This document shows, in pieces, positions 633-31,820 of a stretch of 58,231 nucleotides of DNA. The position numbers were made by a program, and so were the translations under genes. Numbering within the stretch: position 1 is the stretch's first letter; each line of letters starts with the position of its first letter. The stretch comes from an uncultured Nitrospirota bacterium (lineage in GTDB: Bacteria > Nitrospirota > Nitrospiria > SBBL01 > CAZSHZ01). The notes beneath the pieces are model-generated. The model saw only the letters and a list, made by a program, of their open reading frames with translations, was not told the DNA's origin and did not search any database. The stretch lies in NCBI GenBank assembly GCA_964606955.1, contig CAZSHZ010000093.1, positions 1 to 58,231 of the forward strand, written 5' to 3'.

Positions 633-1757
633 ATGGTGCCGATCGGAAGAAAACCGCTCCCCCTGATCATTTTCCTTACGCTCTCTGCATGCACCCCGTC
701 CGCCCCGCCCCGTCCAAGCCCCCTCTTCCCCCCGGTAGAGTACCTGGTCGGCGACAGCCCCTCATTTCTTGCGGCGGCGGACTTCGACAGCGACGGGTTG
801 ATCGATCTCCTCTCCGTGAACGCCGGGAGCAACGACCTCTCGATTCTGACGGGAGATGGTGAGGGGGGCTTTAAAACGGGGGCGCGCATTCCGGTCGGGC
901 AGCACCCGCGCTGGGCCGCGGTGGCCGACTTCAACTCGGACGGCGCGCCGGATATCGCCGTCGTCAATCTCAACAGCGACGATCTCCGCCTCCTCCTCTC
1001 CTCCGGAAAGGGGCGGATGCGTCCGGCTCCCCCTATTCCGGTGGGGCGCTCCCCTTTTTCGGTCGCCGCGGGGGATTTCAACGGAGATCGGAAGCCGGAT
1101 CTGGCGATCACGCTCCGGTTCGACAAGATGATCATTCTCCTTGGAAACGGCAGAGGGGGGTTCACGCAGGGGGCCGGATATGATCCGGGCGACACCCCGA
1201 CCGGGGTGGTGGCAAGCGACCTGAATTCCGACCAGCGCCTTGACCTTGTTGTCGCCAACAACGGCGGGATGTCGGACGATTTCGTCGTCTTCTTCGGGAA
1301 AGGGGACGGCTCCTTCGAGCTTTCGGAAAAGTACAAGACGAAGATGCGCCCCCTCTATCTCGTCTCGGGGGACTTTAACGGGGACGGGAAAATCGACATC
1401 GTCGTTGTAAACGGAGTGCGCGACACGCTGAGCATCTTCTTGGGGAACGGGGATGGGACGCTTGTCCGGGGGAGCGACTTCGGCGCGGAGGGGGGACCGG
1501 TCTCGGCCGCAGCGGCGGATCTGGACGGGGATGGAAGGCTCGACCTCGCCGTCGTGAACGTCCGGAGCGACAATCTCTCGCTGATTATGGGGGAAGGGGG
1601 GGGGCGCTTTCATCACCCCCCCATCAATATCTTCACCGGCGCCGCCCCGTACTCGGTGATCGCCGCCGATTTCAACTCCGACGGACGCTCCGACATCGCA
1701 GTGGCGAACAACGGGAGCAACAGCCTCTCGGTCCTGATCGCCCGACGCGGCGGCTGA
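633..1757 (+). CDS. FG-GAP/VCBS-repeat lipoprotein
   Basis: N-terminal signal with lipobox LSAC. About seven copies of the D(F/L)N(S/G)DGxxD(I/L)(A/V)VxN motif at roughly 50-aa spacing. Confidence 0.8.
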   Translation: MVPIGRKPLPLIIFLTLSACTPSAPPRPSPLFPPVEYLVGDSPSFLAAADFDSDGLIDLLSVNAGSNDLSILTGDGEGGFKTGARIPVGQHPRWAAVADFNSDGAPDIAVVNLNSDDLRLLLSSGKGRMRPAPPIPVGRSPFSVAAGDFNGDRKPDLAITLRFDKMIILLGNGRGGFTQGAGYDPGDTPTGVVASDLNSDQRLDLVVANNGGMSDDFVVFFGKGDGSFELSEKYKTKMRPLYLVSGDFNGDGKIDIVVVNGVRDTLSIFLGNGDGTLVRGSDFGAEGGPVSAAAADLDGDGRLDLAVVNVRSDNLSLIMGEGGGRFHHPPINIFTGAAPYSVIAADFNSDGRSDIAVANNGSNSLSVLIARRGG

Positions 1758-1758
1758 A

Positions 1759-2646
1759 ATGCGCGAGTGGGCTGTCCTCCTCTTCGCCGGCTTCCTCCTC
1801 TTTCTGTTGGTGATCGGATTCGCCTTGCGGATGAGAACCGGCTTCTCCCAGCCGGGGCAGCAGGAGATCGCGGCCCCTCGCCCGGCGGCGGCTGATCCCA
1901 ACCGCTATGCGCATCTGAAGACCATCGTCGGAAAAGACGGCGTCCCGATGGCGATGATCCCGGCCGGAAAGTTTCTGATGGGGACCAAGGAAGAGGTCGG
2001 CGAATTCGACGAGCGCCCGCCGAGGGAGGTCACTCTCAAAGGATACGCCATCGACCTCTACGAGGTGAGCCGCGAATCGTATCTGAAATTCGTCGAGGCG
2101 ACGCGCCACCGCGACCCCGAGGTGATGGTCTTTTTCGATAATCCGAAAAAACTTGAGGCCTCTCCCCGGCAGCCGGTGGTCGGCGTGTCGTGGGATGACG
2201 CCAACGCATACTGCAGATGGGCCGGGAAGAGGCTCCCGACCGAGGCCCAGTGGGAGCGGGCCGCCCGAGGGGAGGATGGCCGCCGTTACCCCTGGGGCGA
2301 AGAGTTTCTAGAGGGGCACACCAACGTCCGGGGAGGGGAGGATGGATTCCTCTATACCGCCCCGGTCGGGTCGTTCGAGGCGGGCCGAAGCCCGTACGGT
2401 CTGTATGACACCGCGGGGAACGCGGCCGAGTGGGTCTTCGATTGGTACGACGAGTTTTACTACCGGGAGGGGCAGGTCACCCTTCCGAAAGGCCCGGAGA
2501 AGGGGATGGCCCGGGTCGTCCGGGGAGGCTCCTGGAACGATCCGAAGGGGGATGCGCGGACGACGAAACGGATGGCGATTGCGCCCTCCCGCTCCGAGGC
2601 GATCATCGGGTTCCGCTGCGCGGTTGATCTCCCGGAGGAGAACTGA
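1759..2646 (+). CDS. FGE-sulfatase (SUMF1/EgtB/PvdO) family protein, membrane-anchored, lacking the FGE catalytic cysteine pair
   Basis: N-terminal hydrophobic anchor. Family signatures: VSWDDANAYCRWAGKRLPTEAQWERAARG, GNAAEWVFDWY, VVRGGSW and GFRCA. No Cys occurs in the region after RGGSW. Confidence 0.8.
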   Translation: MREWAVLLFAGFLLFLLVIGFALRMRTGFSQPGQQEIAAPRPAAADPNRYAHLKTIVGKDGVPMAMIPAGKFLMGTKEEVGEFDERPPREVTLKGYAIDLYEVSRESYLKFVEATRHRDPEVMVFFDNPKKLEASPRQPVVGVSWDDANAYCRWAGKRLPTEAQWERAARGEDGRRYPWGEEFLEGHTNVRGGEDGFLYTAPVGSFEAGRSPYGLYDTAGNAAEWVFDWYDEFYYREGQVTLPKGPEKGMARVVRGGSWNDPKGDARTTKRMAIAPSRSEAIIGFRCAVDLPEEN

Positions 2647-2669
2647 AGCCGCGACGGCGAAGATCGTTA

Positions 2670-3029
2670 TTGCCTCCGGAGGAATTCGAGCGGCTCGTCG
2701 CCGGGGCGATCGAGGGTCTCCCGCCCCAGTTTGCAGATCGTCTGGAGAATATCGCGGTCGTGGTCGAGGAGGAGCCGACCGATGCGGAGCGGACCGAACT
2801 GGGTCTTGGACCGGGCGATCTTCTCTGCGGCGTCTATCGGGGGAGCCCCTACCCGGACCGAACCCCCTCGGGATACTTCGGCGCCCTCCCCGATCGGATT
2901 GTCCTCTATCGTTCGGAGATTCTCCGCCTCGCCCATGGAAAAGAGCGGATCATCCGCGAGATTCAGCGCACGGTGGTTCACGAGATCGGTCACTACTTCG
3001 GCCTGGCCGACCATGAGATGCCTTTTTAG
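2670..3029 (+). CDS. small zincin-like metallopeptidase family protein (DUF1025-type)
   Basis: 119-aa ORF with a TTG start and a C-terminal HEIGHYFG (HExxH) motif. Confidence 0.65.
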   Translation: MPPEEFERLVAGAIEGLPPQFADRLENIAVVVEEEPTDAERTELGLGPGDLLCGVYRGSPYPDRTPSGYFGALPDRIVLYRSEILRLAHGKERIIREIQRTVVHEIGHYFGLADHEMPF

Positions 3030-3086
3030 CGTTGACCCGATTACGCCGCCGTGGTATTTTCCTCTAAAATCTTGAGGAGGGGCGCG

Positions 3087-3767
3087 ATGAACAGACAGAC
3101 GCAGGCGCTAATCGCCGAGGGGATCGGGACCTTCATCTTTTTCACGATCGGAGCAGGGTCGATCATCACCGACCAGATGACGGGGGGAAAGGTCGGTCTC
3201 CTCGGGATCGCGGCGGCCCATGGGGTCATCCTGGCAATCATGGTCTCGGCCTTCGGGCATATCTCCGGCGGTCACTTCAACCCGGCCGTCACTACAGGCC
3301 TCTGGGCGGGAAATAAGATCGGCGGAGCCCTGGCGGCCCTATACATCGGGGCCCAACTGGTCGGGGCCGTCGCCGCCGGAGTCGCGCTTCGGATCGTCTT
3401 TCCGGAAAACGTCTGGCGGCCGGTCCACCTCGGCACGCCCGGGCTGGCGCCCGGAGTCGGGTTCTCCACCGCTGTATTCTTGGAGATTCTGATGACATTC
3501 TTTCTGGTCACCGCCGTCTATGGAACGGCCGTGGATGCCAGGGGACCGAAGATCGGAGGGTTCGCGATCGGCCTGACGGTCTTCTGCGACATTCTGTTGG
3601 GCGGACCGCTCACCGGCGCTTCAATGAACCCCGCGCGGACGTTCGGTCCCGCCCTGGTTTCAGGCTACTGGGATAACCACCTGGTCTACTGGATCGGGCC
3701 GTTGATCGGCGGGGCGCTGGCGGGCCTGGTCTACAACAACTCCTTTCTGGAGACCAGGAGCAGGTAA
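3087..3767 (+). CDS. MIP-family aquaporin/glycerol-facilitator-like channel
   Basis: Two NPA boxes (GGHFNPAVT and ASMNPARTF) and six hydrophobic segments. ATG at 3087 follows GAGGAGG at 3074-3080; the track ORF extends to a GTG at 3051. Confidence 0.9.
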   Translation: MNRQTQALIAEGIGTFIFFTIGAGSIITDQMTGGKVGLLGIAAAHGVILAIMVSAFGHISGGHFNPAVTTGLWAGNKIGGALAALYIGAQLVGAVAAGVALRIVFPENVWRPVHLGTPGLAPGVGFSTAVFLEILMTFFLVTAVYGTAVDARGPKIGGFAIGLTVFCDILLGGPLTGASMNPARTFGPALVSGYWDNHLVYWIGPLIGGALAGLVYNNSFLETRSR

Positions 3768-3789
3768 CGGGTTATTATAGGGGCTTTTG

Positions 3790-3818
3790 CCCCAAGCGCG
3801 CGGCGCTCGGGGACCCCC
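3790..3818. repeat. GC-rich palindromic element, copy 1 (CCCCAAGCGC-GCG-GCGCTCGGGG-ACCCCC)
   Basis: 10-bp arms with one mismatch, a 3-nt loop and an ACCCC tail. Preceded by the mini-hairpin GGGGCTTTTGCCCC at 3780-3793. Same architecture as the copies at 3854, 8315 and 27053. Confidence 0.7.
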
Positions 3819-3853
3819 AGCGTCGCCCCCTCCACCGGCAAAGCCTGATTCCA

Positions 3854-3882
3854 CCCCGAAGGCTCGGCCTTCGGGGACCCCG
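3854..3882. repeat. GC-rich palindromic element, copy 2 (CCCCGAAGGC-TCG-GCCTTCGGGG-ACCCCG)
   Basis: Perfect 10-bp arms, a 3-nt loop and an ACCCCG tail. Confidence 0.75.
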
Positions 3883-3920
3883 CAAAACGCCTCCCCCTCT
3901 CGCTCGCGTTGCTCGCTGGG

Positions 3921-3952
3921 TAGATCCCCCCGCAAGCCGGTGGGGGGATCTA
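3921..3952. repeat. inverted repeat TAGATCCCCCC-N10-GGGGGGATCTA overlapping the tusA stop codon; possible transcript-end hairpin
   Basis: Perfect 11-bp arms at 3921-3931 and 3942-3952. No U-tract follows on either strand, so it is not a canonical intrinsic terminator. Confidence 0.4.
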
Positions 3953-4183
3953 CTTCATCTTCCTGACGTAGCATTTATAGATTTTTCCCTCTTCCACCAG
4001 CTGGAGGAGTTCCTGGCCTGAGGTCCTGCACCAGGCCGGCATATCTTTTTTGATCCCAACATCGTCGGAAAGGACCTCGACCACCTGCCCGATCGTCATC
4101 TGCTTCATCTTTTTGGAGGTCAGGATGATCGGGATCGGACAGTAGAGACCGAGGGTATCGAGGGTAAGATCCGCGACGATCAC
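3950..4183 (-). CDS. tusA: TusA-family sulfurtransferase
   Basis: 77 aa. N-terminal LDTLGLYCPIPI carries the CPxP active-site motif of TusA/SirA proteins. The start overlaps the stop of the upstream desulfurase-like gene by 4 nt. Confidence 0.75.
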   Translation of the reverse strand: MIVADLTLDTLGLYCPIPIILTSKKMKQMTIGQVVEVLSDDVGIKKDMPAWCRTSGQELLQLVEEGKIYKCYVRKMK

Positions 4184-5343
4184 CGGAGCCCCCCGCCCGC
4201 AGCATAGATCGGAGAGAGACGGCGGAGTTGAGCAACCTCCTTAGGAAAGACCTCCAGGACGTAATCGACCTGGGCATCGTCGGTCCCCCTTCCGAGCGAA
4301 AAGACCACCCCGCCGGCGGCGATGTTTGGGGGAAACCCCATTGCGGTGAGGACCGGCGAGATCTTCTGGGCGTGCGAAGCGCAGGAGGAGCCGGAGGCCG
4401 CGATGATTCCGCGGCGCTCAAGACTCTTGATCAGAGCCTCCGCCTCGACATATTCAACGCAGACGGAGGCGATCGTCGGGAGGCGGTGCTCCCGCGAACC
4501 GGTGACATGGACCAGCGGCGTCCGCTCGGCCAATCCGTCGAGAAGCCGGTCGCGAAGAGCGGCGATCCGCTCCCCGTCCGCCGAAAGTCTTTCGATCGCG
4601 ACCTCGGCGGCGGCCCCCATTCCGGCGATCGCGGCGACATTCTCAGTTCCGGCGCGTCTCCCCTCTTCCTGGATCCCCCCCTCAATCAGCGGAAGGATCC
4701 GCACTCCCCGCCGGACAGTAAGAGCCGCCGCGCCTTTGGGGCCGTAAAAGGTCGGGGCCGCCAGGGTCAGCAGGTCAATGCCAAGACGCTCCAGATCGAC
4801 CGGAATGACTCCCACGCTCGCCACCGCATCGACATGGAAGCGAATCCCACGCGAGCGTAGGACTGGCGCAATCTGTTCGATCGGCTGGATCGATCCCATC
4901 TCGCTGCTCGCATGCTGGAGGGAAGCGAGAATCGTATCGGGCCGGAGGGCCCCTTCGATATTCCTCGGATCGACCCTCCCCTCTCGATCGACGGGGAGGA
5001 CGGAAACTTCCCACCCCTCCTTTTGAAGGCTTTGGAAGGGGTGGGCAACCGAGTAGTGCTCGACGGCCGAGGTGATCAGGTGCCCCCGTTTTCCGCGCGT
5101 GCTCCCGCGGATCGCCCAGTTATTCGCCTCACTCCCGGAGGCGGTGAAAAAAATCTCTTCCGGCGAGGCTCCGATCATTCTTGCGACGGCGGCGCGGGCG
5201 TGCGCGAGCGCCTCTTTCGGCTTTTGCCCGAGCGCATGGCGGCTCTGGGCGTTTCCGAAGTCATCGGAGAGAACCGGGAGCATCGCCTCGCGCGCCTCGG
5301 GCGCAAGCGGTGTTGCGCCGATATAATCCAAATAAACTTTCAT
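4180..5343 (-). CDS. cysteine desulfurase-like class V aminotransferase-fold protein in which the PLP-binding His-Lys is replaced by Pro-Thr
   Basis: Aligns along its full length with the bona fide IscS in this window. IDLLTLAAPTFYGPKGAAAL aligns with [20 protein letters not shown]. The persulfide loop Cys is retained (ASGSSCAS versus SSGSACTT). Confidence 0.8.
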   Translation of the reverse strand: MKVYLDYIGATPLAPEAREAMLPVLSDDFGNAQSRHALGQKPKEALAHARAAVARMIGASPEEIFFTASGSEANNWAIRGSTRGKRGHLITSAVEHYSVAHPFQSLQKEGWEVSVLPVDREGRVDPRNIEGALRPDTILASLQHASSEMGSIQPIEQIAPVLRSRGIRFHVDAVASVGVIPVDLERLGIDLLTLAAPTFYGPKGAAALTVRRGVRILPLIEGGIQEEGRRAGTENVAAIAGMGAAAEVAIERLSADGERIAALRDRLLDGLAERTPLVHVTGSREHRLPTIASVCVEYVEAEALIKSLERRGIIAASGSSCASHAQKISPVLTAMGFPPNIAAGGVVFSLGRGTDDAQVDYVLEVFPKEVAQLRRLSPIYAAGGGLR

Positions 5344-5347
5344 GCCG

Positions 5348-5365
5348 GCCTATGATACCATAGGC
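5348..5365. promoter_or_regulatory. perfect palindrome GCCTATG-ATAC-CATAGGC within the 24-nt spacer between divergent start codons
   Basis: Read directly from the DNA. The spacer between the minus-strand ATG (5343) and the plus-strand ATG (5368) is almost entirely this dyad. Confidence 0.35.
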
Positions 5366-5367
5366 AT

Positions 5368-5685
5368 ATGAGGTTCGGCCTTCTCCTCTCCACTCCGCCG
5401 GAAGCGCTTGATTGCGAGACCGCCGTCAATCTGGCAAGTCGTGCGATCGAACGGGGAAATGAGGTCTATCTCTATCTTGTCGACGACGGGGTGAAGAACC
5501 TCGATCGTCCTGAGATCTCCGATCTTACCCGGCGGGGGGCCCACCTCTTCCTCTGCGCATACGGCGGACAGCGGCGTGGGATTCACGCCTCCGATCCGAA
5601 GCATGCCGACTTCTCCGGCGCCTTCGCCGGGCTCGTCGTCCTCTCCGATCTGGTAAAAGGCTGCGACAAGTTCGTCTCCTTTTGA
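5368..5685 (+). CDS. DsrE/TusD-like sulfur relay protein
   Basis: MRFGLLLS start. LFLCAYGGQRRGI matches the TusD NICVAAALRRGV active-Cys region, and the C-terminal GCDKFVSF resembles TCDRVVQF. Confidence 0.65.
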   Translation: MRFGLLLSTPPEALDCETAVNLASRAIERGNEVYLYLVDDGVKNLDRPEISDLTRRGAHLFLCAYGGQRRGIHASDPKHADFSGAFAGLVVLSDLVKGCDKFVSF

Positions 5686-6020
5686 AAGTCGTCGTCCTTA
5701 TCCGGACCGACCCACGATCCTCTCACCGCCCCTGCGAGGGGGTCCGGATCGCGTTAGGGCTCGCCGCCGGCGACCATGAAGTGGACGTTATCCTCTCGGG
5801 GAAGTCCCCGCTGCTGCTCTCCCAGACCGACGATATGGTCGACGGAGAGATGGCCGAGAAATATCTCCCCTCGCTCAAGGAATATGTTCCGAAATTCTAC
5901 GTGGAGAGGGAGACGGTTGATCCGGCCGATCTGGACGGGACCGATTATGAAATCGAGCCGCTGGGTGCAAAGGAGGTCGCGCAGAGGCTAGCTTCGGCCG
6001 ATCGCTCGATCATCTTCTGA
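5682..6020 (+). CDS. DsrF/TusC-like protein
   Basis: 112 aa with a 4-nt overlap with the preceding gene. MKVVVLIRTDP start, DsrE-fold-like pattern, and a C-terminal ...IIF ending as in TusC. Confidence 0.5.
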   Translation: MKVVVLIRTDPRSSHRPCEGVRIALGLAAGDHEVDVILSGKSPLLLSQTDDMVDGEMAEKYLPSLKEYVPKFYVERETVDPADLDGTDYEIEPLGAKEVAQRLASADRSIIF

Positions 6021-6262
6021 TGCCCCGCAAGATTCTTCATATCGTGCGGCGCACCGACGACCCGCACGCCCTCGCGGTGGCGGCGCGCCAGCGCGAGGCA
6101 GGGGAAGAGGTGACGGTGGTGTTGATCCACGAGGCCGCCGGGGTTCCGGTGAGCCCGCCGAAACCTCTGGAGGGGGCGGTCTTTCCGCTGCCCCCCTCCG
6201 CCGAGGGTTACGACCGCCTTTTTGAGCTGATCGCGGTCGCCGACTCGATCGTCACCTGGTAA
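6020..6262 (+). CDS. DsrH/TusB-like protein
   Basis: 80 aa with start overlapping the previous stop. The C-terminal YDRLFELIAVADSIVTW resembles the TusB tail YTDFVRL...MAW. This is a weak call. Confidence 0.4.
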   Translation: MPRKILHIVRRTDDPHALAVAARQREAGEEVTVVLIHEAAGVPVSPPKPLEGAVFPLPPSAEGYDRLFELIAVADSIVTW

Positions 6263-6265
6263 GTC

Positions 6266-6475
6266 CTAGCGATTGGCGCGGTGCTCTTCGAGCCAGGCCA
6301 TCTGGATCGCCTCGAGTTTCCCTTCGGTCGAGACCTTCGGGTCGTCTGCGAAATCGGGGAGTTCGGTCACACAGCGGTGGAGGTCGGTAAAGCGTACGGT
6401 CAGCGGATCGAGATCCGGAAATTTCTCCGCCAGCGCGATTCCAATCTCTTCGGCGTCCTCCCACATCAGGGCCAT
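6266..6475 (-). CDS. iscX: Fe-S assembly protein IscX
   Basis: [46 protein letters not shown] is typical of IscX/YfhJ. Start chosen at the ATG at 6475, which forms an ATGA overlap with the fdx stop; the track ORF extends further upstream. Confidence 0.8.
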   Translation of the reverse strand: MALMWEDAEEIGIALAEKFPDLDPLTVRFTDLHRCVTELPDFADDPKVSTEGKLEAIQMAWLEEHRANR

Positions 6476-6798
6476 CAGTGCTGCTCCGCGACCCGCCAGC
6501 TCTGCGTCTCCGGCAGGATCTCGACGGTGACGTCTCCCTCCTTCAGCCGCGCCTGACAACCGAGGCGGGAGGTCAGGGTGAGCCCTTCGGCGGTGTCGAG
6601 CCGGTCCTCCTCATCCTCCTGCATCTTGGAAAGATGATCTATGCCCGACTTCACGATGACATGGCAGGTCGTGCAGGCGCAGTTTCCGCCGCAGTTGTGT
6701 TCCAGTTCGATGTGATGCTCCAGGGCCACATCCAAAATGCTCTGCCCTTCTTTCCCCTCCACCGTGATGTTCTGGGGAAGAAAGGTGACCTTAGGCAT
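6475..6798 (-). CDS. fdx: ISC-type [2Fe-2S] ferredoxin
   Basis: Cys ligands sit in the [12 protein letters not shown]...C pattern. Positioned after hscA. Confidence 0.9.
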
Positions 6799-8644
6799 CT
6801 TTCTTCTCCAGCGCTTCTTTGACGGCGCGGCTCATCAAGCTCTCGGCCAGCGGCATCGCGGCCGAATCAAGCCTCTCCAGCGCCTGCCGGATCGCCTGAT
6901 GGTCATTTCCGGCAACCGCCTGCTCGACCCCCTTCCTCGCCTCCCGAATCTCGGCGATCATCTCCGGGGCAGCAACCCCCTCCGCCTGCGCCAGCGCCTT
7001 TTCGGCGTGACGCAAGACCCCCTGGGCCTCGGTCCGCGCCTCAATCAGCATCCGCTCGGACATATCGGCGCGGGCGAAATGGATCGACTCCTCGATCATC
7101 CGCTCGACCTCGGCGTCCATCAATCCGTAAGACGGCTTCACCTCGATCCCCGCCTCCTTGTTCGTCCGCAGTTCCTTGGCGCGGACCTGGAGGATGCCGT
7201 TCGCGTCGATCAGAAACGTCACCTCGATCTTGGGGATCCCCGCCGGCATCGGATCGATCTTAAGATCGAAGCGCGCAAGCGAGCGGCAGTCGCGGACCAG
7301 TTCGCGCTCCCCCTGCACCACATGGATCGGCACCCTCGTCTGCCCGTCCATAAAGGTCGTGAACATCTCTTTGGCGGAAGCGGGGATCGTCGTATTGCGC
7401 GCGATCAGCTTGCTGACGACGCCCCCCATCGTCTCCATCCCGAGCGACAGCGGCGTCACGTCCAGCAGGAGAAGATCCTTAATGCCGCCGGCGAGGATGT
7501 CGGCTTGAACCGCCGCGCCGAGCGCGACGACCTCGTCGGGATTGAGCTCCGAGTGCGGCTTCTTGCCGAAGACCTCCTCGACCCGTCGGCGCACCAGAGG
7601 CATCCGGGTAGCCCCGCCCACAAGAATCACCTCATCGAGCTGTTCGGGCGCAAGCCGCGCATCCTCAAGCGCCTGGCGGCAGGGGGGGATCGTCCGCTCG
7701 ACGATGTCGGACGACCACTCCTCCAACTCGCGCCGGCTCAATACCCGGCGGTAGTCGACGCTGTCCCGGCAGACCGCCATCTCGGCGGTTGCTTCGAACG
7801 AGAGGCGGCACTTCGCCTCCTCGGCCGCAAGACGGACCGCCTGCATTAACTCCCGGTCGGCCTCGATCGGGCCTCCCGCCCGCTCGGCGACCTCCCCGGC
7901 CACGCGATCGACGATCCGCCGATCGATGTCGTCTCCTCCCAGGTGGGTATCGCCGTTCGTCGCGAGGACCTCAAAGACCCCCTCCTTGATCTTGAGGATT
8001 GAGATGTCGAACGTCCCGCCCCCCAGATCGTAGACCGCGATGATCCCTTCCTTCTTCTTCTGAAGCCCGTAGGCGAGGGAGGCCGCCGTCGGTTCATTGA
8101 CGATCCGCAAGACCTCCAGCCCCGCGATCTTGCCGGCGTCCTTCGTCGCCTGTCTCTGCGCGTCGTTGAAATAGGCCGGGACAGTGATGACCGCCTGGCC
8201 GACCAGCTCGCCGAAGAAGAGCTCCGCCCTCCGCTTCAACTCCTGGAGGATCAGCGCGGAGATCTCGGGCGGCGTGTAGATCCGCCCCCCCACTACGATC
8301 CGGACGATCTCCCGCCCCGAGCGCTCAGCGCTCGGGGACCCCGACTGCTGGGGCCCCGACTCCTCCGAGAGTCGGAACGGGAAATAGGCCAACTCGCTTT
8401 TGACATCGTCGCTCCCTCTCCCCATGAACCGCTTGATCGAGTAGATCGTCTGCTCCGCGTTCACAACGAGCTGCTTTTTGGCCTCGTATCCGATGCTCGC
8501 CGAGCCTTCCGGAGAGAAAGTCACCACGGAGGGGAGGAGGGGCCTCCCCTTCTCGTCCGGAATGACGCGCGGCTCCCCCCGATCCATGAAGGCCACCAGG
8601 CTGTTGGTCGTTCCGAGATCGATTCCGACCACGCGCGAGCTCAT
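6791..8644 (-). CDS. hscA: Fe-S cluster assembly chaperone HscA (Hsp70 family)
   Basis: [24 protein letters not shown] and the full Hsp70 architecture. Start set at MSSRVVGID (ATG at 8644), an ATGA overlap with the hscB stop. The 63-aa upstream extension in the track overlaps hscB. Confidence 0.95.
8315..8343. repeat. GC-rich palindromic element, copy 3 (CCCCGAGCGC-TCA-GCGCTCGGGG-ACCCCG), inside hscA coding sequence
   Basis: Perfect 10-bp arms, a 3-nt loop and an ACCCCG tail. Translated on the minus strand as ...[10 protein letters not shown]... Confidence 0.7.
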
Positions 8645-9285
8645 GAACGCCTCCCGATCAGAGCATCCCTGTGCGACAGCGCCGCGTCGATATCGGCGAG
8701 AAGGCGGGCGAAGTACCCAGCCTGGCCGAGGATCTGCTTCATCTCCTCGATAATGCGTGGATCCTGGCGGGCATCCCAGTCGCCCTTCATCCTCTCCAAC
8801 CGTTCGAGCCTCTGCCAATCCCGCTCCCGCCACCGGTCGCGCGCCTTCGCGAGTCTCTCCAAGATCTCGGCAGAGCCACCCCTCGCCTCCTCCATCAGTT
8901 CCTGAAGCTCTAGAACCTCCTCAAAAAGGTCGGACGGCGGCTTCTCGGCGCTGTCGGCCACCTCGGAAGGACCCCCAACCAGCCGGACGAGGTAGGCGGT
9001 CCGTTCCATAGGATCCCGAAGGGTGCGGTACGCAAGGTTCACCCGCGCCGTATTGGCGAGCGAGATCTCCCGTTCGGTCTCGGAGGCGCGCTGGAAGTAG
9101 TCGGGGTGAAACCTCCGCGATAATTCGTGGTAGCGCCGCTCGAGATCCTTCGGGTCCAGATGAAAGCAGCGCGGGAGGCCGAACAGGGCGAAATGATCCC
9201 TCTCTGCAAGGGGCTGGATGGCCCCGCAGTGGCCGCAGCGCCCCGCGGTCTCCTCAATCTCTTTTTTGCATCTCCAGCAGGTCAT
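8641..9285 (-). CDS. hscB: co-chaperone HscB with an N-terminal tetracysteine zinc-finger
   Basis: J-domain with HPD (RRFHPDYF) and a C-terminal helical domain. N-terminus is [23 protein letters not shown] (CxxC-x11-CxxC). Confidence 0.9.
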
Positions 9286-9290
9286 TTAAC

Positions 9291-9332
9291 CCAAAAAAAG
9301 AAGAGCCCTGATTCGGGTCGCCTCAGGGCTCT
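9291..9332 (-). terminator. intrinsic-terminator-like hairpin between iscA and hscB
   Basis: Minus strand reads AGAGCCCTGA-ggcgacccgaa-TCAGGGCTCT followed by TCTTTTTTTGGG. The U-tract ends 7 nt before the hscB ATG. Confidence 0.55.
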
Positions 9333-9372
9333 TTCGCGTACAGCGTTTGCGCGGGAGGGGCGGCCGTTTATC

Positions 9373-9762
9373 TCAGGCCGAGAACGACTCCCCGCACCCG
9401 CAACTCCGTTTGGCGTTCGGGTTGCCGAATTTGAAGCCCCCTCCCACCAGCGCATCGGAAAAATCGAGCGTGATGCCGGTGATGTAGAGCGCGCTCTTCG
9501 GATCGAGCAGGACCCGCAACCCATCGAACTCAAAGAGCTGGTCGTGCGGCCCCGGTTCGTTCTCAAATGTAAGCGTATAGCTCAGCCCTGAGCACCCTCC
9601 TCCTTTGACGCCGACCCTCAACGGTTTTCCAACGGCGTTCTCCGCAACGGCCAGCTCGCGGGCTTTTTTTACGGCCGCCGGGGTCAGCACGATCGGAGGG
9701 GCGTCCGAGGCGGGGGACAGGCTCTCTGCCCCCGCATTCATCTGAAGAGGCTTCGTCTCCAT
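9373..9762 (-). CDS. iscA: A-type Fe-S carrier IscA
   Basis: GGGCSGLSY and the C-terminal CGCGESFSA motif of the HesB/IscA family. Confidence 0.9.
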   Translation of the reverse strand: METKPLQMNAGAESLSPASDAPPIVLTPAAVKKARELAVAENAVGKPLRVGVKGGGCSGLSYTLTFENEPGPHDQLFEFDGLRVLLDPKSALYITGITLDFSDALVGGGFKFGNPNAKRSCGCGESFSA

Positions 9763-9769
9763 GATCCTC

Positions 9770-10168
9770 CTAGGCCGGCACCTCCTGCGTCGCCGCGGTC
9801 TTCTTTTTGTAGTCGGCGATCGCGGCCTTGATCGCGTCCTCCGCCAGGACCGAACAGTGGATCTTCACCGGCGGAAGGGAGAGCTCCTCGACGATCGCGG
9901 TATTCCTGATCTTCATCGCCTCATCGATCGTCTTTCCCTTCAGCCATTCGGTCGCCAAAGAAGACGACGCGATCGCGCTGCCGCAGCCGAAGGTCTTGAA
10001 CTTGGCCCCTTCGATGACGCCGTTGCTGACCTTGATCTGCAGTTTCATCACGTCCCCGCACTCGGGGGCCCCCACGATCCCCGTCCCAACGCTCGGATCG
10101 TTCTTGTCGAGGCTCCCGATATTGCGCGGATTGTTGTAATGGTCAATGACTTTTTCGCTGTACGCCAT
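9770..10168 (-). CDS. iscU: Fe-S scaffold IscU
   Basis: GAPECGDVMKL, FKTFGCGSAIASSS and LPPVKIHCSVLAEDA supply the three conserved Cys residues. Confidence 0.95.
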   Translation of the reverse strand: MAYSEKVIDHYNNPRNIGSLDKNDPSVGTGIVGAPECGDVMKLQIKVSNGVIEGAKFKTFGCGSAIASSSLATEWLKGKTIDEAMKIRNTAIVEELSLPPVKIHCSVLAEDAIKAAIADYKKKTAATQEVPA

Positions 10169-10185
10169 TTATCCCCCCGTTCTGT

Positions 10186-11406
10186 TTAATCCCGTGTCCA
10201 CTGGACCGTCTTCAGGTCGATCCCTTCCTTCGCCATCTCGTAAAGCGGGGACATCTCGCGCAGCCGCTTCACAGTCTCGATGACCCTCCCGATCACGTAG
10301 TCGATCTCCTCTTCCGTGTTAAACCGCCCTAAGCCGAAGCGGATCGAGGAGTGAGCCAGGTCGTTCCCCACCCCGAGCGCCCGAAGCACGTAAGAGGGCT
10401 CCAGGCTGGCGGTCGTGCAGGCGGAACCGGACGAGAGGGCGATCTCATTCAAGCCCATCAAGAGCGATTCCCCTTCCACATAGGCGAAACTAATATTCAC
10501 GTTGTTTGGCAGCCGCCGCACCGGATCTCCGTTGAGGTAGACCTCGTCCATGCCGGCGAGAATCCTATCCCGAAGTCTGTCCCGCAGGCAGGTCAGGCGC
10601 TCGCTCTCTTCCGACATGACCTTCGCGCAGATCGCACAGGCCTCCCCGAACCCGACGATCAGCGGGACCGGGAGCGTCCCCGAGCGCATCCCCCGTTCAT
10701 GCCCCCCTCCGTCGATGAGCGGCGCGATCCGCACCCGCGGGTTCCTTTTACGGACATAAAGCGCGCCGACCCCCTTGGGGCCGTAGATCTTGTGCGCGGA
10801 GAATGACATCACATCGATCCCGGCAGCGTTGACATCCACCGGGATCTTCCCGACTCCCTGCGTGGCGTCACAGTGAAAAATGATCCCCCGCTCCTTGGCC
10901 CATTTCCCGATCTCGTTCACCGGATTGATCGTTCCGATCTCATTGTTGGCCAGCATGATCGAGATCAGGATCGTCTTCTCGGTCGTCGCCGCCTTCACGT
11001 CGTCGGGGTTGACGACCCCGTCCGGCCCGACGGAGACATAGGTCACCCGATATCCCATCTTCTCCAGCCGCTTGCAGGTGTCCAAGACCGCCTTGTGCTC
11101 GGTCACCGCGGTGATGATGTGATCGCCCTTCTCCCGATACATCTCCGCGACGCCTTTGAGGGCCAGGTTGTCCGATTCAGTGGCGCCGGAGGTGAAGATG
11201 ATCTCCTTCGAATCGCAGTGGATGAGCGCCGCGATCTGCTTGCGGGCATTTTCCACCGCCTCCTCGGCTTGCCACCCGAAGAGATGATTGCGGCTCGCCG
11301 CATTCCCGAATTTTTCGGTGAAATACGGCAGCATGGCCTCAACCACCTTGGGATCGGTCGGGGTCGTAGAATGGTTATCCATAAAGATCGGGAACTTCAG
11401 CATCAT
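10186..11406 (-). CDS. iscS: cysteine desulfurase IscS
   Basis: [17 protein letters not shown] contains the PLP lysine, and [21 protein letters not shown] contains the active-site Cys. The C-terminal DLKTVQW tail is typical of IscS. Confidence 0.95.
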
Positions 11407-11867
11407 ATCTCCTTCAAGGATCCAGACAAGGATCCCGATTCGACGTTCAGGGTCGCGGCCGGGAGCGGCTCATCCTGTCGGTAGAGATCCTCGACCGTCA
11501 TACTGTCGAGAAAGGCGGTGAGGGAGTCCTGGATCTTCCGAAAAGGGGTGCGGACGGTGCAGAGATCGACGTGCTCGCAGCGCTGGTTCTCGTAGCATGA
11601 GGCAATCCGGACCGGCCCCTCGATCGCGCGGATCACCTCGCCGACCGTGATTTCGTCCAGATCCCTGGAGAGCGTGTATCCCCCCTTCGGCCCATTGTGG
11701 CTCACGATGATTCCGCCTCTGACCAACTTCTGCAAAATTTTCGCTAACAACTCCGGAGGGAGACGGTAGAACTCCGAAATCATCTTCGCGTTGACATTGA
11801 CATCAAGCGACCCCATATACTGGATCGCCATCAGGCCATAGTCGATACGTTTCGTAAGTCTCAGCAT
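11403..11867 (-). CDS. iscR: Rrf2-family Fe-S regulator IscR
   Basis: [15 protein letters not shown] winged-helix N-terminus. Cluster ligands are spaced C-x5-C-x5-C ([13 protein letters not shown]). First gene of the isc operon. Confidence 0.85.
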
Positions 11868-28540: not shown

Positions 28541-30259
28541 ATGGAGCGAAAATACCTCGACACGGACATCCTGATCATCGGAGGGGGAACGGCCGGCTGC
28601 ATGGCCGCCGTTGAGACGAAGGAGCGCTATCCGCAGCTGAAGGTCGCGATCCTGGAGAAGGCGCATATCGACCGCTCCGGTTGCCTGGCCGGGGGGATGA
28701 ACGCGATCAACGCCTATCTGAATCCGGGCGAGACGCCGGAGTCGTTTGCCCGTTACGTCCGGTTCGACTCCTGCGGGTTGATCCGGGAGGACCTGGTCAC
28801 CTCGATGTCCGAGCTTTTTGAATACGCGGTAAAAAAGGTCGAGAAGTGGGGGCTTCCGATCCTCACCGACAAGAACGGGAACTATGTCCCGCGCGGCCGG
28901 TGGAATATCAAGATCAACGGAGAATCGCTCAAGCCGATCCTGGCAAAGGCCGCCCGGGAAGCAGGGGCCGTCGTCCACAACTGGATCGTCGTGACCAATC
29001 TTTTGACAACGGAGTCCGATCCGCGAAGGGTCATCGGAGCGACCGGTTTCTCGATCCGGACCGGGGTCTTTTTCATCGTCCGCGCCAAGGCGACGATCAT
29101 CGCCACCGGCGGCGCCGCCGGGATCTATCGATCCCTCAACGTCTTCGACGCGCAGCATAAGACTTGGTATTGCCCCTACAACACCGGAGCGGGATACGCG
29201 ATGGGGATACGGGCCGGCGCGGAGATGACCTCCTTCGAGATGCGGTACGTCGCCTTGAGAACCAAAGATGTCATCGCCCCGACCGGAACAATCGCGCTTG
29301 GGGTGAATGCCCCACAGATCAATGCAAAGGGGGAAAAGTTCATGCAGACCCGCTACGCCCATCTCGGCGGGGATGCCGCACCCACCCCCTATCGCGCCTA
29401 CGCCCCGATTCAGGAGATCAAGAGCGGGAGAGGACCGGTCTACCTCGACACCCGTGGCATCACCCCCGAGCAGGTCCATAACTTAAAGGGGGCATTTCTC
29501 GACATGTACCCCTCGCAAGTCCTCTACTGGGTCTCCAACGATATCGATCCCTCAAAAGAGCCGGTCGAGGTGCAGACGACCGAACCCTATATCGTCGGTG
29601 GGCATTGCCAGGCAGGCTATTGGGTGGATGGGGAGCGGCGCACAACCCTCCCCGGCCTCTATGCGGCGGGGGATGTGGCCGGCGGCGCGCCGTTCAAGTT
29701 CATCTCCGGCTGCTGGGCGGAGGGGGTCATCGCGGCTCGGGCAGCCGGCCGAGACGTCATCGCTCTGCCGTGGGAGGTGATCGACCCGGGTCAGGTAGAG
29801 ACCGAGGAGAAACGGGTCTTCGCGCCTCTACGCGCCCACGGCAAAATCAGAGGCGGCGTGATCCCCTATGAGATGGAGGTCCGCCTTCAAAAGATCATGG
29901 AGGAGTACGCAGGCGGCGCCTCCAGCTACTATGAGATGAACGAGGAGAGGCTTCTCATCGCCCGGCGCGAACTGGCAAGGCTCCCCGCCCAGACCCCGCA
30001 TCTGATGAGCGATGATCTGCATTCTCTCATGAAGGCGCACGAGATCATCGACCGGATCGACGTCGCGCGCGTGCTGGTGGAGCATCTGATCTATCGAAAA
30101 GAGACCCGCTGGCCCTCGTATCAGACCCGCGTCGATTATCCCCAGCGGGATGATGAGAACTGGTTAAAATTCGTTAATTCCGTCGCAAAAAACGGCGAGA
30201 TCGTGATGATGACGCGCCCCTATGAACAGATGATTGCCGGGGACCGCTACAAACCTTAA
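28541..30259 (+). CDS. aprA: adenylylsulfate (APS) reductase alpha-subunit-like flavoprotein
   Basis: FAD motif DILIIGGGTAGC. ...RSGCLAGGMNAINAYL...YVRFDSCGLIREDLV resembles archaeal/bacterial AprA as I recall it. Followed by an AprB-like ferredoxin and sat. At 572 aa it is shorter than typical AprA. Confidence 0.7.
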   Translation: MERKYLDTDILIIGGGTAGCMAAVETKERYPQLKVAILEKAHIDRSGCLAGGMNAINAYLNPGETPESFARYVRFDSCGLIREDLVTSMSELFEYAVKKVEKWGLPILTDKNGNYVPRGRWNIKINGESLKPILAKAAREAGAVVHNWIVVTNLLTTESDPRRVIGATGFSIRTGVFFIVRAKATIIATGGAAGIYRSLNVFDAQHKTWYCPYNTGAGYAMGIRAGAEMTSFEMRYVALRTKDVIAPTGTIALGVNAPQINAKGEKFMQTRYAHLGGDAAPTPYRAYAPIQEIKSGRGPVYLDTRGITPEQVHNLKGAFLDMYPSQVLYWVSNDIDPSKEPVEVQTTEPYIVGGHCQAGYWVDGERRTTLPGLYAAGDVAGGAPFKFISGCWAEGVIAARAAGRDVIALPWEVIDPGQVETEEKRVFAPLRAHGKIRGGVIPYEMEVRLQKIMEEYAGGASSYYEMNEERLLIARRELARLPAQTPHLMSDDLHSLMKAHEIIDRIDVARVLVEHLIYRKETRWPSYQTRVDYPQRDDENWLKFVNSVAKNGEIVMMTRPYEQMIAGDRYKP

Positions 30260-30270
30260 GAGGAGGACAG

Positions 30271-30651
30271 ATGCCGGTCTGGGTCGATCCTGAGAAGTGC
30301 AACGGCTGCTACGGCGCGGCCCAACCCCCTTGCCTGCGGATGTGCCCCGGAGATCTGATCGTCAAGGACATGAAGGCCGACAAGGCCTATCTGAAATATC
30401 CGGAGGACTGCTGGGACTGCCTCCCCTGCGTGAAGGCCTGCCCGGAGGAGGCGATTGAGTTTGTCCTCTCCTACCAGATCGGCTTTAGAAACGCCCGGCT
30501 GATTCCGCATGTCGCGAAGGGCCGCGACAAGATTACCTGGGAGTGCCACGACAGCCGCGGGAATATCGAGGAGTTTGTGATTCCGACGAAGATCCTCCCG
30601 ATGGCGCTCGACGAGAAGGTCGAGGGGGCCCCGATCGATTTCTCAATATGA
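30271..30651 (+). CDS. aprB: APS reductase beta-subunit-like 2x[4Fe-4S] ferredoxin
   Basis: Cys spacing C-x2-C-x7-C-x3-CP (CNGCYGAAQPPCLRMCP) and C-x2-C-x2-C-x3-CP (CWDCLPCVKACP) matches the AprB pattern. MPVWVDPEKCNGC start. Confidence 0.7.
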   Translation: MPVWVDPEKCNGCYGAAQPPCLRMCPGDLIVKDMKADKAYLKYPEDCWDCLPCVKACPEEAIEFVLSYQIGFRNARLIPHVAKGRDKITWECHDSRGNIEEFVIPTKILPMALDEKVEGAPIDFSI

Positions 30652-31820
30652 TGGCTTCGATCCCGCACGGAGGAAGGCTGGTCACCCTTTTGGCGGAGCA
30701 GCGGGATCGGGCCGATCTGGCCCGCAAGGCCTCGGGCCTGCCGAGGCTGGTGCTGACGGCCCGCCAGATGTCGGACCTGGAGCTTCTCGTCCACGGGGCG
30801 CTCTCCCCGCTGGAGGGTTTCATGGGGAGCGCCGAGTTCGAATCGGTCCTCTCCGGGATGCGACTCCCCTCCGGGCTGATCTGGTCGATTCCGATTACCC
30901 TGGCGACAAGCCGCGAGACGGCCTCCCAACTCCGCGAAGGGGGGGAGGTCGCCCTTGCCGATCCCTCCGGGAGGCCTGTGGCCCTTCTCGCGTTGGCCGA
31001 AAAATTCCCTCACAAAAAAGAGCCGGAGGCCTTGAGCGTCTACGGGACCGCGGATCCGAAACACCCCGGGGTCGCGTATGTCCTATCGATGCCCCAGATC
31101 CTTTTGGGTGGGAAAGTGATCGCTTTCTCCGATCTCCTTGGGACCGACTTCTCTGAATTCAGGCTGACGCCAAGTGAGACGCGCGGGCTTTTTGAGGAAC
31201 GGGGATGGAAGCGGATCGTCGCCTTCCAGACCCGGAACCCGATTCACCGGGCCCACGAATATATCCAGAAGTGCGCGCTTGAGATCGCCGACGGACTCCT
31301 GGTTCACCCGATCGTCGGGGAGACAAAGGGAGACGACATCTCCGCCGAGGTTCGGATGCGCTGTTACCGCGTCCTCCTCGACAACTATTATCCCAAGGAG
31401 CGCACGTTACTCGCCGTCTTTCCGGCCTCCATGCGGTATGCCGGCCCCCGGGAGGCGATCTTTCACGCCATGATCCGGAAGAACTACGGCTGCACCCACT
31501 TCATCGTCGGCCGCGACCACGCCGGAGTCGGAAACTACTACGGTCCCTTCGACGCCCAGAAGATCTTTCACCGCTTCACCGAACAAGAGCTCGGAATCAC
31601 GCCGCTCTTCTTCGACAACACCTTTTACTGCCGCCGTTGCCTCGGGATGGTATCGGCAAAGACCTGTCCCCACGACGCCACCGAGCATATCGCCCTGTCC
31701 GGGACAAAGGTTCGGGAGATGTTGATCGCGGGGATCGCCCCGCCGCCCGAATTCACCCGTCCCGAGGTCGCCGCGATATTAATTGAGGCGATGCGTGACG
31801 GGACAGGGCCGAAGCCGTGA
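30648..31820 (+). CDS. sat: sulfate adenylyltransferase (ATP sulfurylase)
   Basis: QTRNPIHRAHE and GRDHAGVGNYYGP motifs. Start at the ATGATG overlapping the aprB stop (30648/30651); the track extension upstream lies inside aprB. Confidence 0.9.
   Translation: MMASIPHGGRLVTLLAEQRDRADLARKASGLPRLVLTARQMSDLELLVHGALSPLEGFMGSAEFESVLSGMRLPSGLIWSIPITLATSRETASQLREGGEVALADPSGRPVALLALAEKFPHKKEPEALSVYGTADPKHPGVAYVLSMPQILLGGKVIAFSDLLGTDFSEFRLTPSETRGLFEERGWKRIVAFQTRNPIHRAHEYIQKCALEIADGLLVHPIVGETKGDDISAEVRMRCYRVLLDNYYPKERTLLAVFPASMRYAGPREAIFHAMIRKNYGCTHFIVGRDHAGVGNYYGPFDAQKIFHRFTEQELGITPLFFDNTFYCRRCLGMVSAKTCPHDATEHIALSGTKVREMLIAGIAPPPEFTRPEVAAILIEAMRDGTGPKP

Follow-up and report, generated by a model that had tools for sequence, protein, structure and literature searches.

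We found that the gene at 4180..5343 of the window (the whole stretch of 58,231 nucleotides that was analysed, contig CAZSHZ010000093.1 of an uncultured Nitrospirota bacterium) encodes an IscS-like protein without the Lys that binds pyridoxal 5′-phosphate (PLP), and that its stop codon overlaps the start of tusA. We call this protein IscS*, and reference columns follow E. coli IscS numbering. In textbook accounts, a PLP-dependent cysteine desulfurase takes the first step in the synthesis of iron-sulfur (Fe-S) clusters and of thio-cofactors. Among characterised proteins, the one exception known to us is IscS2 of Archaeoglobus fulgidus, so far regarded as an oddity of the archaea that presumably runs on free sulfide. 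The residues lost from IscS* suggest that it no longer binds PLP and would be unable to desulfurate cysteine, whereas its dimeric fold and flexible Cys321 loop are kept. On balance, IscS* is probably an inactive relay partner of TusA that depends on this Cys loop; that the relay delivers sulfur to Fe-S assembly via IscU is a more tentative proposal. The features that carry this reading are as follows.

4180..5343, minus strand: IscS*, an IscS/NifS-fold protein of 387 amino acids without the PLP site ("pseudo-desulfurase"); Pfam Aminotran_5
4750..4755, minus strand: codons CCG ACC, Pro197-Thr198, replacing the His205-Lys206 PLP pair; from the alignments
4819..4821, minus strand: Ala175, for Gln183 (hydrogen bond to PLP O3′); family and 118-gene alignments
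4303..4305, minus strand: Val347, for Arg354 (binds the substrate cysteine carboxylate); family and 118-gene alignments
4381..4383, minus strand: Cys321 of the mobile SGSSC loop (E. coli IscS Cys328); invariant
3950..4183, minus strand: tusA, 77 amino acids; Pfam TusA (PF01206) E=1.8e-21, CPxP cysteine

Loss of the PLP site in a family of IscS-like proteins

IscS* matches Pfam Aminotran_5 (PF00266) end to end (E=2e-60), with a score of 205 bits against a cut-off of 21.5 and residues 3-361 of 387 covered. It stays below the NCBIfam equivalog cut-offs both for NifS (TIGR03402, 415 vs. 530.75) and for IscS (TIGR02006, 307 vs. 643.2; PRK14012, 321.5 vs. 548). An earlier note, made from the DNA letters alone, had called the gene a cysteine desulfurase paralog lacking the PLP-binding Lys, and our results confirm this. 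In a pairwise alignment with the genuine IscS of the window (10186..11406, minus strand; 38% identity), the 12-residue His-Lys segment of IscS stands opposite TLAAPTFYGPKG in IscS*. The codon of Pro197 is CCG (4755..4753) and that of Thr198 ACC (4752..4750), and Thr198 fills the Lys206 column in all three alignments (the pairwise one, that of the family, and that of 118 sequences). Since both alternative frames are interrupted by stops, the substitution is not a frameshift artefact; the earlier reading of the two codons, and of their being in frame, was correct.

The substitution is shared by the orthologs of IscS*. The family alignment comprised IscS* of the window and its 120 closest database homologs (51-99% identity), with the IscS of the window as a ruler; the named close homologs come from Nitrospira defluvii, Candidatus (Ca.) Manganitrophus, and metagenome-assembled genomes (MAGs) of Nitrospiria and Nitrospirota. 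All 120 homologs are without the Schiff-base Lys (0/121 with IscS* itself included) and have Gln, Ser, Pro, Thr, or Ala in its place. The His205 column holds Gln, Asp, Pro, Asn, or Ser, the Gln183 column Ala or Gly in nearly all sequences, and the Arg354 column Val, Leu, Ile, or Met in all; the roles of these active-site residues are taken from work on E. coli IscS (PMC9978102). Three losses in IscS* of the window go beyond those that the earlier note had recorded: Gln183 has become Ala175, Arg354 has become Val347, and Ser203 is replaced by Ala. The note had likewise recorded neither the family-wide extent of the loss nor the precedent in A. fulgidus.

Other parts of the protein are strongly conserved. 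His104, Asp180, Thr243, the GPKG turn, and the loop Cys (E. coli Cys328) are invariant or nearly so in the family, and the Lys of GPKG is universal. The persulfide-carrying SGSSC loop, which had been described as retained, is indeed present as ASGSSC with Cys321, and its Cys is invariant in 121/121 family members and in 22 diverse Lys-less sequences. A 59-sequence family alignment contains 47 invariant columns. With that alignment as input, AlphaFold gave a model of IscS* with a predicted local distance difference test (pLDDT) score of 91.5, in which disorder is restricted to the Cys loop and one other loop; the low pLDDT at residues 322-325 fits a flexible Cys loop. Foldseek aligned the model to IscS and NFS1 structures at template modelling (TM) scores of 0.92-0.95, the top match being the A. 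fulgidus IscS-IscU complex 4eb7 (TM 0.92). Because the Lys loss is family-wide, 47 columns are invariant, and the model is confident, these data point to selection and not decay: loss of the Lys is a property of the family rather than the mark of a pseudogene, and IscS* is conserved and under selection.

The Lys-less state extends beyond the close family. Among the best 150 matches of a HMMER search of 1.84 billion cluster representatives, 21 are without the Lys, and almost all of these 21 are also without Gln183 and Arg354. For the analysis of linkage we assembled 115 loci from three sources: a scan of genome contigs (top match at 60% identity, in an uncultured Nitrospirota MAG), a scan of metagenome contigs for which a diverse Lys-less alignment served as seed, and look-ups of exact proteins. 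The 115 loci contain 118 IscS-like genes, 34 Lys-less and 84 Lys-containing. Only four columns separate the two classes among the 118 homologs: Gln183, His205, Lys206, and Arg354. These residues covary almost perfectly: the combination Gln-His-Lys-Arg is found in 82/84 Lys-containing genes, and Arg354 in all 84 of them but in 0/34 Lys-less genes. Position 183 is Ala, Gly, Ser, Asp, or Asn in 33/34 Lys-less genes and Gln in 82/84 Lys-containing ones, and the Lys position across the Lys-less class is occupied by Gln, Ser, Pro, Thr, Ala, Asp, or Leu. All four columns are contacts to PLP or to the substrate; the catalytic apparatus has been removed selectively and the rest of the protein kept.

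Neighbour-joining (NJ) trees, built with the signature columns removed, give little bootstrap support to the branching of the class. One places all 34 Lys-less genes in a single clan (8% bootstrap), and another puts A. fulgidus IscS2 outside the main Lys-less clan (12% bootstrap). The cluster representative P0122, 46% identical to IscS* of the window, keeps His-Lys yet has Ala for Gln183 and Leu for Arg354; it groups with the Lys-less clan in an NJ tree and possibly represents an intermediate between the two states.

Asn74, Ser98, Phe199, and Lys327 are enriched in the Lys-less class. The last of these (4363..4365 in the window) follows the loop Cys by six residues, in the column of E. coli Glu334, and occurs in 29/34 Lys-less genes vs. 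7/84 Lys-containing genes. In PDB 9wep, the closest relative that has the PLP Lys, the equivalent position is a Lys too, and Lys327 is therefore no replacement for the PLP Lys. The closest solved sequences (PDB 9wep, 9wer, 9wew, 9wf8, 9wfb, 9wfe, and 9wfy) are one 406-residue "cysteine desulfurase" and multi-site variants of it. The changes in this series (the Thr of GGTEANN to Ile, DAVQ to DAAP, SFSAHK to SFTAHK or SFTAHL, and VRF to VVF) fall at the same kind of positions as those that differ in the Lys-less class.

Linkage to TusA, IscU, and DsrE-family genes

The tusA gene of the window scores 76 bits against PF01206 (cut-off 28.6) and 59 against the TusA equivalog, under its cut-off of 78. 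Its LYCPIP segment aligns with Cys19 of E. coli TusA, and the CPxP cysteine is conserved. At the junction GGTGA, the TGA stop of IscS* (4182..4180) overlaps the GTG start of tusA (4183..4181), as the earlier note had described. The same 4-nt overlap is found in N. defluvii (L002) and in a third Nitrospirota contig (L003).

TusA neighbours were scored across the sample with a hidden Markov model built from eight sequences, including E. coli TusA, and counted if they lay within 2.5 kb on the same strand. A TusA neighbour accompanies 18/34 Lys-less genes vs. 0/84 Lys-containing genes (Fisher p=2.8e-12). Restricting the count to loci whose flanks reach 1.5 kb or more on each side gives 14/19 vs. 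0/49 (p=9e-11), and even at a relaxed E<=1 no TusA was found beside any of the 84 Lys-containing genes. The frequency of IscU neighbours is similar in the two classes (11/19 Lys-less vs. 29/49 Lys-containing). The Lys-less genes may form one clade, in which case the TusA linkage possibly reflects few independent events; the Fisher p-values would therefore overstate independence, and this weighs against our interpretation. The linkage to TusA persists through changes in gene order, as the following arrangements show.

IscS*-TusA, with the 4-nt overlap or a gap of up to about 45 nt: window, L001 (Ca. Manganitrophus), L002 (N. defluvii), L003, L008
IscS*-TusA, in a 46%-identical lineage: P0124
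IscR-IscS*-IscU-TusA: L009-L012, L014
IscS*-IscU-Zn ribbon-DrsE_2-TusA: L036, L037
TusA-DrsE_2-IscS*-IscU: L091
TusA-IscS*, of the A. fulgidus-like "ND" type: L033

Two further groups of neighbours recur at these loci. A gene of the FA_desaturase family, encoding about 290 amino acids, lies directly upstream of IscS* on the same strand in Ca. Manganitrophus (L001, 7024..7890), N. defluvii (L002, 7046..7918), and the third Nitrospirota contig (L003, 7036..7905); the window does not have this gene. Convergent with tusA and just 3′ of it, L001 (9510..11955) and L007 (10779..12753) have genes for a DUF3501 protein and a CCG/Fer4 (HdrD/GlpC-like) protein; the L001 region also has a rubrerythrin gene.

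On the other side of IscS* in the window stand a divergent trio of DsrE/F/H-like genes and, beyond the trio, a complete isc operon that includes iscX.

5348..5365, no strand assigned: 18-bp palindrome GCCTATGATACCATAGGC, taking up most of the 24 bp that separate the start codons of the divergent IscS* and DsrE-like genes
5368..5685, plus strand: DsrE/TusD-like, 105 amino acids, FLCAYG cysteine; Pfam DsrE 7e-07
5682..6020, plus strand: DsrF/TusC-like, 112 amino acids; Pfam DsrE 3e-07, weak TusC match
6020..6262, plus strand: 80-residue open reading frame (ORF), TusB/DsrH-like by position and a C-terminal V(T/A)W motif only
6266..11867, minus strand: complete isc operon; from the ORFs, with IscS over the PRK14012 cut-off and a Pfam match for IscX
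11403..11867, minus strand: iscR
10186..11406, minus strand: iscS
9770..10168, minus strand: iscU
9373..9762, minus strand: iscA
8641..9285, minus strand: hscB
6791..8833, minus strand: hscA
6475..6798, minus strand: fdx
6266..6559, minus strand: iscX

The IscS of this operon scores 659.7 against the PRK14012 equivalog, over the cut-off of 548. Both Pfam DsrE matches are weak (about 30 bits) and far under the TusD and TusC equivalog cut-offs, and the 80-residue ORF had no match to Pfam at E<=10. The FLCAYG Cys is shared by the orthologs in the window, L004, and L007, and the DsrF/TusC-like gene and the 80-residue ORF are conserved in L004 and L007. L007 (60% identity) has the same gene order as the window (isc operon, iscX, divergent trio, IscS*, TusA), and L004 (47% identity) has part of it. 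L007 has, in addition, a membrane protein of the TauE/SafE sulfite-exporter family between the DsrE-like genes and IscS* (7148..7951) and a small toxin-antitoxin-like pair between IscS* and tusA (9923..10434). The palindrome is a perfect 7+7 repeat (GCCTATG-ATAC-CATAGGC) in single copy in the window and may be an operator. A pattern of this kind, with up to two mismatches, arose at least once in 11/100 shuffles, and an equivalent site was sought in L004, with no shared site found.

Across the sample, the DsrE-family neighbours of Lys-less genes belong to two different Pfam families: PF02635 in the window, L004, L007, and L035, and PF13686 in L036, L037, and L091. The trio is absent from the Nitrospira loci. 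A DsrE-family neighbour is found in only one Lys-containing locus, L075, where a Lys-containing IscS-IscU pair is accompanied by divergent DsrE/F-like genes (about 1295..6143). This locus suggests that the DsrEFH-like trio can join isc operons independently of the Lys-less protein. Experiments have shown that DsrE3-type proteins give sulfur to TusA (PMC11094781).

Several genes elsewhere in the window are noted here in their own right. A 572-residue flavoprotein with FAD_binding_2 and Succ_DH_flav_C domains, either AprA-like or fumarate-reductase-like (28541..30259, plus strand), adjoins an ATP sulfurylase (30543..31820, plus strand; PUA_2 and ATP-sulfurylase domains); the pair hints at sulfur metabolism based on adenosine 5′-phosphosulfate in the same genome. 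At 34797..35717 (plus strand) lies the gene for a P-loop NTPase of the Mrp/NUBPL type, which is a candidate carrier of Fe-S clusters. An ORF of 1594 amino acids (42202..46986, plus strand) has multicopper-oxidase domains near its N terminus, and the genomes closest to the window include Ca. Manganitrophus-like Nitrospirota.

A probable relay partner of TusA and the alternatives

The earlier note had proposed that the protein is a pseudo-desulfurase and not a generator of sulfur. This is supported by the joint loss of four contacts, the degenerate residues that replace them, and the scores below the equivalog cut-offs, and also by A. fulgidus IscS2, which has the same losses and is inactive according to the summary in PMC7585200. 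Its further suggestion, that the protein works with TusA and DsrE-like proteins, finds support in the gene neighbourhoods and the invariant Cys loop. The destination that we add, Fe-S assembly on IscU, did not figure in that note; the A. fulgidus precedent and the IscR-IscS*-IscU-TusA operons suggest it.

We propose that IscS* would offer the co-translated TusA a place to dock and would relay its sulfur. DsrE/F/H-like proteins, or possibly the genuine IscS, would load a persulfide on Cys15 of TusA. TusA would then dock on IscS* and exchange its sulfane sulfur with Cys321, and the Cys321 loop would hand the sulfur to an acceptor, most plausibly the IscU of the adjacent isc operon. Cys321 could also ligate a nascent [2Fe-2S] cluster on IscU, as in A. 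fulgidus IscS2. The outcome would be a cysteine-sparing supply of sulfur for Fe-S assembly or another thio-cofactor pathway. What the data show is that the PLP and substrate residues are lost, so that no internal aldimine can form, that the fold and the Cys loop are kept, and that the Lys-less class in our sample is linked exclusively to TusA and repeatedly to DsrE-family genes. Four elements of the scheme are inferred: that PLP is absent, that TusA and Cys321 exchange a persulfide, which way the sulfur flows, and that IscU is the acceptor.

Several observations weigh against this scheme. IscU is not in the operon of IscS* in the window, and a fully competent IscS is encoded 5 kb away, so that the need for another source of sulfur is not evident. 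E. coli IscS binds TusA through Trp45, Glu49, Asp52, Arg55, and Asp65 (PMC2854127); these residues are kept in the IscS of the window, whereas IscS* keeps only Glu49 and Arg55, and the contacts Trp45 and Asp52 are not conserved in it. TusA of the window likewise differs from that of E. coli at Arg27, Phe58, and Met59. The invariant His104 and Asp180, together with the loop Lys327, leave room for non-covalent binding of PLP or for an alternative cofactor. Finally, the nearby DsrEFH-like genes fit the synthesis of tRNA 2-thiouridine or of the molybdenum cofactor just as well.

This last point leads to the strongest alternative, which we nevertheless regard as unlikely: IscS* could be a sulfur-relay adaptor for thio-cofactor synthesis (tRNA 2-thiouridine, molybdopterin) and not for Fe-S assembly. 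IscS* would take a persulfide from the genuine IscS, or pair with it as a heterodimer, and channel the sulfur to TusA and on to the TusBCD-like DsrEFH proteins, as a dedicated docking subunit that spares IscS from the competition between TusA and IscU. E. coli TusA and IscU do compete for IscS (PMC11302665), the TusA and TusD/C/B-like trio at the locus are components of the E. coli 2-thiouridine relay, and in the window and Nitrospira IscS* is paired with TusA alone, without IscU. However, the Nitrospira loci have no such trio, and no TusE/DsrC or MnmA gene was found close to the locus, either in the window or in the annotated surroundings of related loci. The IscS of the window, with Trp45, Glu49, and Arg55 retained, could itself be a binding partner of TusA. 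Moreover, many Lys-less genes lie in IscR-IscS*-IscU-TusA operons that have no Lys-containing IscS-like gene in the flanks covered (5-8 kb on each side, where the contig allows).

It is improbable that IscS* is a regulatory pseudoenzyme that sequesters TusA, IscU, or IscS to tune sulfur flux, with a Cys that carries no sulfur. A dead active site combined with a preserved fold and surface is the usual pattern of pseudoenzyme regulators, and co-translation with TusA would suit such a role. Yet Cys321 and the SGSxC loop are invariant across Lys-less sequences that are just 37-60% identical to IscS* of the window, and a decoy is unlikely because it would not need them; the homologous Cys of A. fulgidus is, in the account given by PMC7585200, a cluster ligand.

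Slightly less probable still is that the protein remains an enzyme, holding PLP or pyridoxamine 5′-phosphate non-covalently or through another Lys (e.g., Lys327) and acting on cysteine or another sulfur substrate. The K206A variant of E. coli IscS retains non-covalently bound PLP and shows a very slow reaction (PMC9978102), His104, Asp180, and Thr243 are invariant, and Lys327 is enriched in the Lys-less class. On the other hand, Gln183 (which contacts O3′), His205 (phosphate), and Arg354 (substrate) have given way to variable, mostly small or hydrophobic residues, and there is therefore no alternative catalytic residue under selection at these positions. A Lys at the position of 327 is present in the Lys-containing 9wep as well, and A. 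fulgidus IscS2, with the same pattern of loss, is reported to be inactive (PMC7585200).

A decaying, non-functional paralog, as the missing catalytic residues and the intact IscS nearby might suggest, can be dismissed as very improbable: the ORF is intact, the family, with its 47 invariant columns and confident predicted fold, is conserved in Nitrospirota and also outside them, and the operon structure and 4-nt tusA overlap are conserved. A pseudogene or frameshift origin, considered separately, is refuted by the comparative data (family-wide loss, intact ORF, and stops in the other frames).

If the relay of sulfur through TusA and IscS* to IscU is correct, it would provide a cysteine-independent entry of sulfur into Fe-S assembly of the ISC type or of the minimal IscS-IscU (MIS) type, and the sulfur source of inactive IscS of the A. 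fulgidus type would be explained. Loss of the PLP site marks a large set of proteins, including those of aerobic nitrite and manganese oxidisers in the Nitrospirota, and the linkage to TusA and DsrE-family genes offers a concrete and testable candidate for the sulfur donor of PLP-free IscS systems. The data suggest that the annotation of Lys-less genes as "cysteine desulfurase" is wrong, and we offer the four-residue signature (Gln183, His205, Lys206, and Arg354) for their re-annotation.

Comparison with known systems

PLP-free IscS as such is already known, and our finding is therefore not categorically new. A TusA-linked class of Lys-less desulfurases was not described in the literature searched, which did not cover Garcia et al. 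2022 on MIS/SMS; within that literature, MIS-type IscS (MisS) is a cysteine desulfurase, and only A. fulgidus IscS2 and M. acetivorans IscS1 are Lys-less. New as far as checked are the TusA-coupled bacterial family, the exclusive linkage of TusA to the Lys-less class in our sample, and the DsrE-family neighbour of A. fulgidus IscS2. We further propose, with more doubt than confidence, that a PLP-free IscS-fold class is widespread in Bacteria and Archaea and passes sulfur from DsrE-family proteins through a TusA relay and the mobile Cys to IscU. The proposed class would range from aerobic Nitrospira and Ca. Manganitrophus to Archaeoglobi, Bathyarchaeia, and Hadarchaea.

The closest characterised protein is A. 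fulgidus IscS2 (AF0564; PDB 4EB5, 4EB7, 4HVK, and 4R5F), the PLP-free IscS of an archaeal MIS-type system. A summary of Marinoni 2012, Yamanaka 2013, and Pagnier 2014 in PMC7585200 reports that its Lys is replaced by Asp and that it is inactive as a desulfurase; in the crystal, as stated there and in PMC13066941, its Cys ligates a [2Fe-2S] cluster on IscU. IscS* has the same fold (TM 0.92) at about 41-42% identity, and the two share Ala for Gln183, a replaced His-Lys pair, a hydrophobic residue for Arg354, and the retained Cys loop, His104, and Asp180. In the sequence of IscS2 these losses read DATA for DATQ, ND for HK, and LLL for IRF, and SSND is found in all 117 IscS2 homologs listed (the engineered D199K entry excepted), of which the named ones are from Archaeoglobi, Hadarchaea, and Bathyarchaeia. 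A DsrE/DrsE_2-family gene for 94 amino acids (5707..5991 of L116, A. fulgidus AE000782.1) ends 10 nt upstream of IscS2-IscU; the characterised system therefore shares the sulfur-transferase neighbourhood. A TusA gene of A. fulgidus lies about 6 kb upstream of IscS2, next to a Pyr_redox_2 gene.

The two proteins also differ in several respects. The Asp of IscS2 is conserved, whereas the family of the window is variable at the Lys position (Pro-Thr, Gln-Gln, and others). IscS2 is in an operon with IscU; IscS* of the window is coupled to TusA, and the IscU of the window is 4.4 kb off, in a complete isc operon with its own active IscS, although an adjacent IscU is present in other Lys-less lineages. 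The hosts of the window family include aerobic Nitrospira and not strict anaerobes alone.

With E. coli IscS and NifS (PDB 1P3W; IscS-TusA complex 3LVJ), IscS* shares the Aminotran_5 fold, the dimer-type architecture, the SGSxC loop, the C-terminal LRxxSPxY helix, and the genomic partnership with TusA and IscU. Unlike these enzymes, it is without the PLP Lys, His205, Gln183, and Arg354 and falls under the equivalog cut-offs. Sulfur in E. coli passes from IscS to TusA, whereas IscS*, given its residues, could hardly generate sulfur itself.

The pairing of a CPxP TusA with DsrE-family proteins that have a conserved Cys resembles the DsrE3/DsrE2-TusA sulfur-transferase cascades that sulfur oxidisers use in the sHdr and rDsr pathways and the TusA-TusBCD relay of E. 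coli. It differs from these cascades in that the partner is an IscS-fold protein and the DsrE-like proteins are far under the TusD and TusC cut-offs, and no sHdr, LbpA, DsrAB, or DsrC genes were identified at the window locus. Burroughs and Aravind 2014 (PMC4075521) described neighbourhoods in Aquificae in which an IscS-like gene stands with IscU/NifU, TusA, and ThiI-NFACT-R. A ThiI-NFACT-R gene was found neither in the window nor in the annotated surroundings of related loci. The Aquificae report is an earlier case of an IscS-like gene grouped with IscU and TusA apart from the classical pathways, but it assumed an active desulfurase that feeds 4-thiouridine synthesis.

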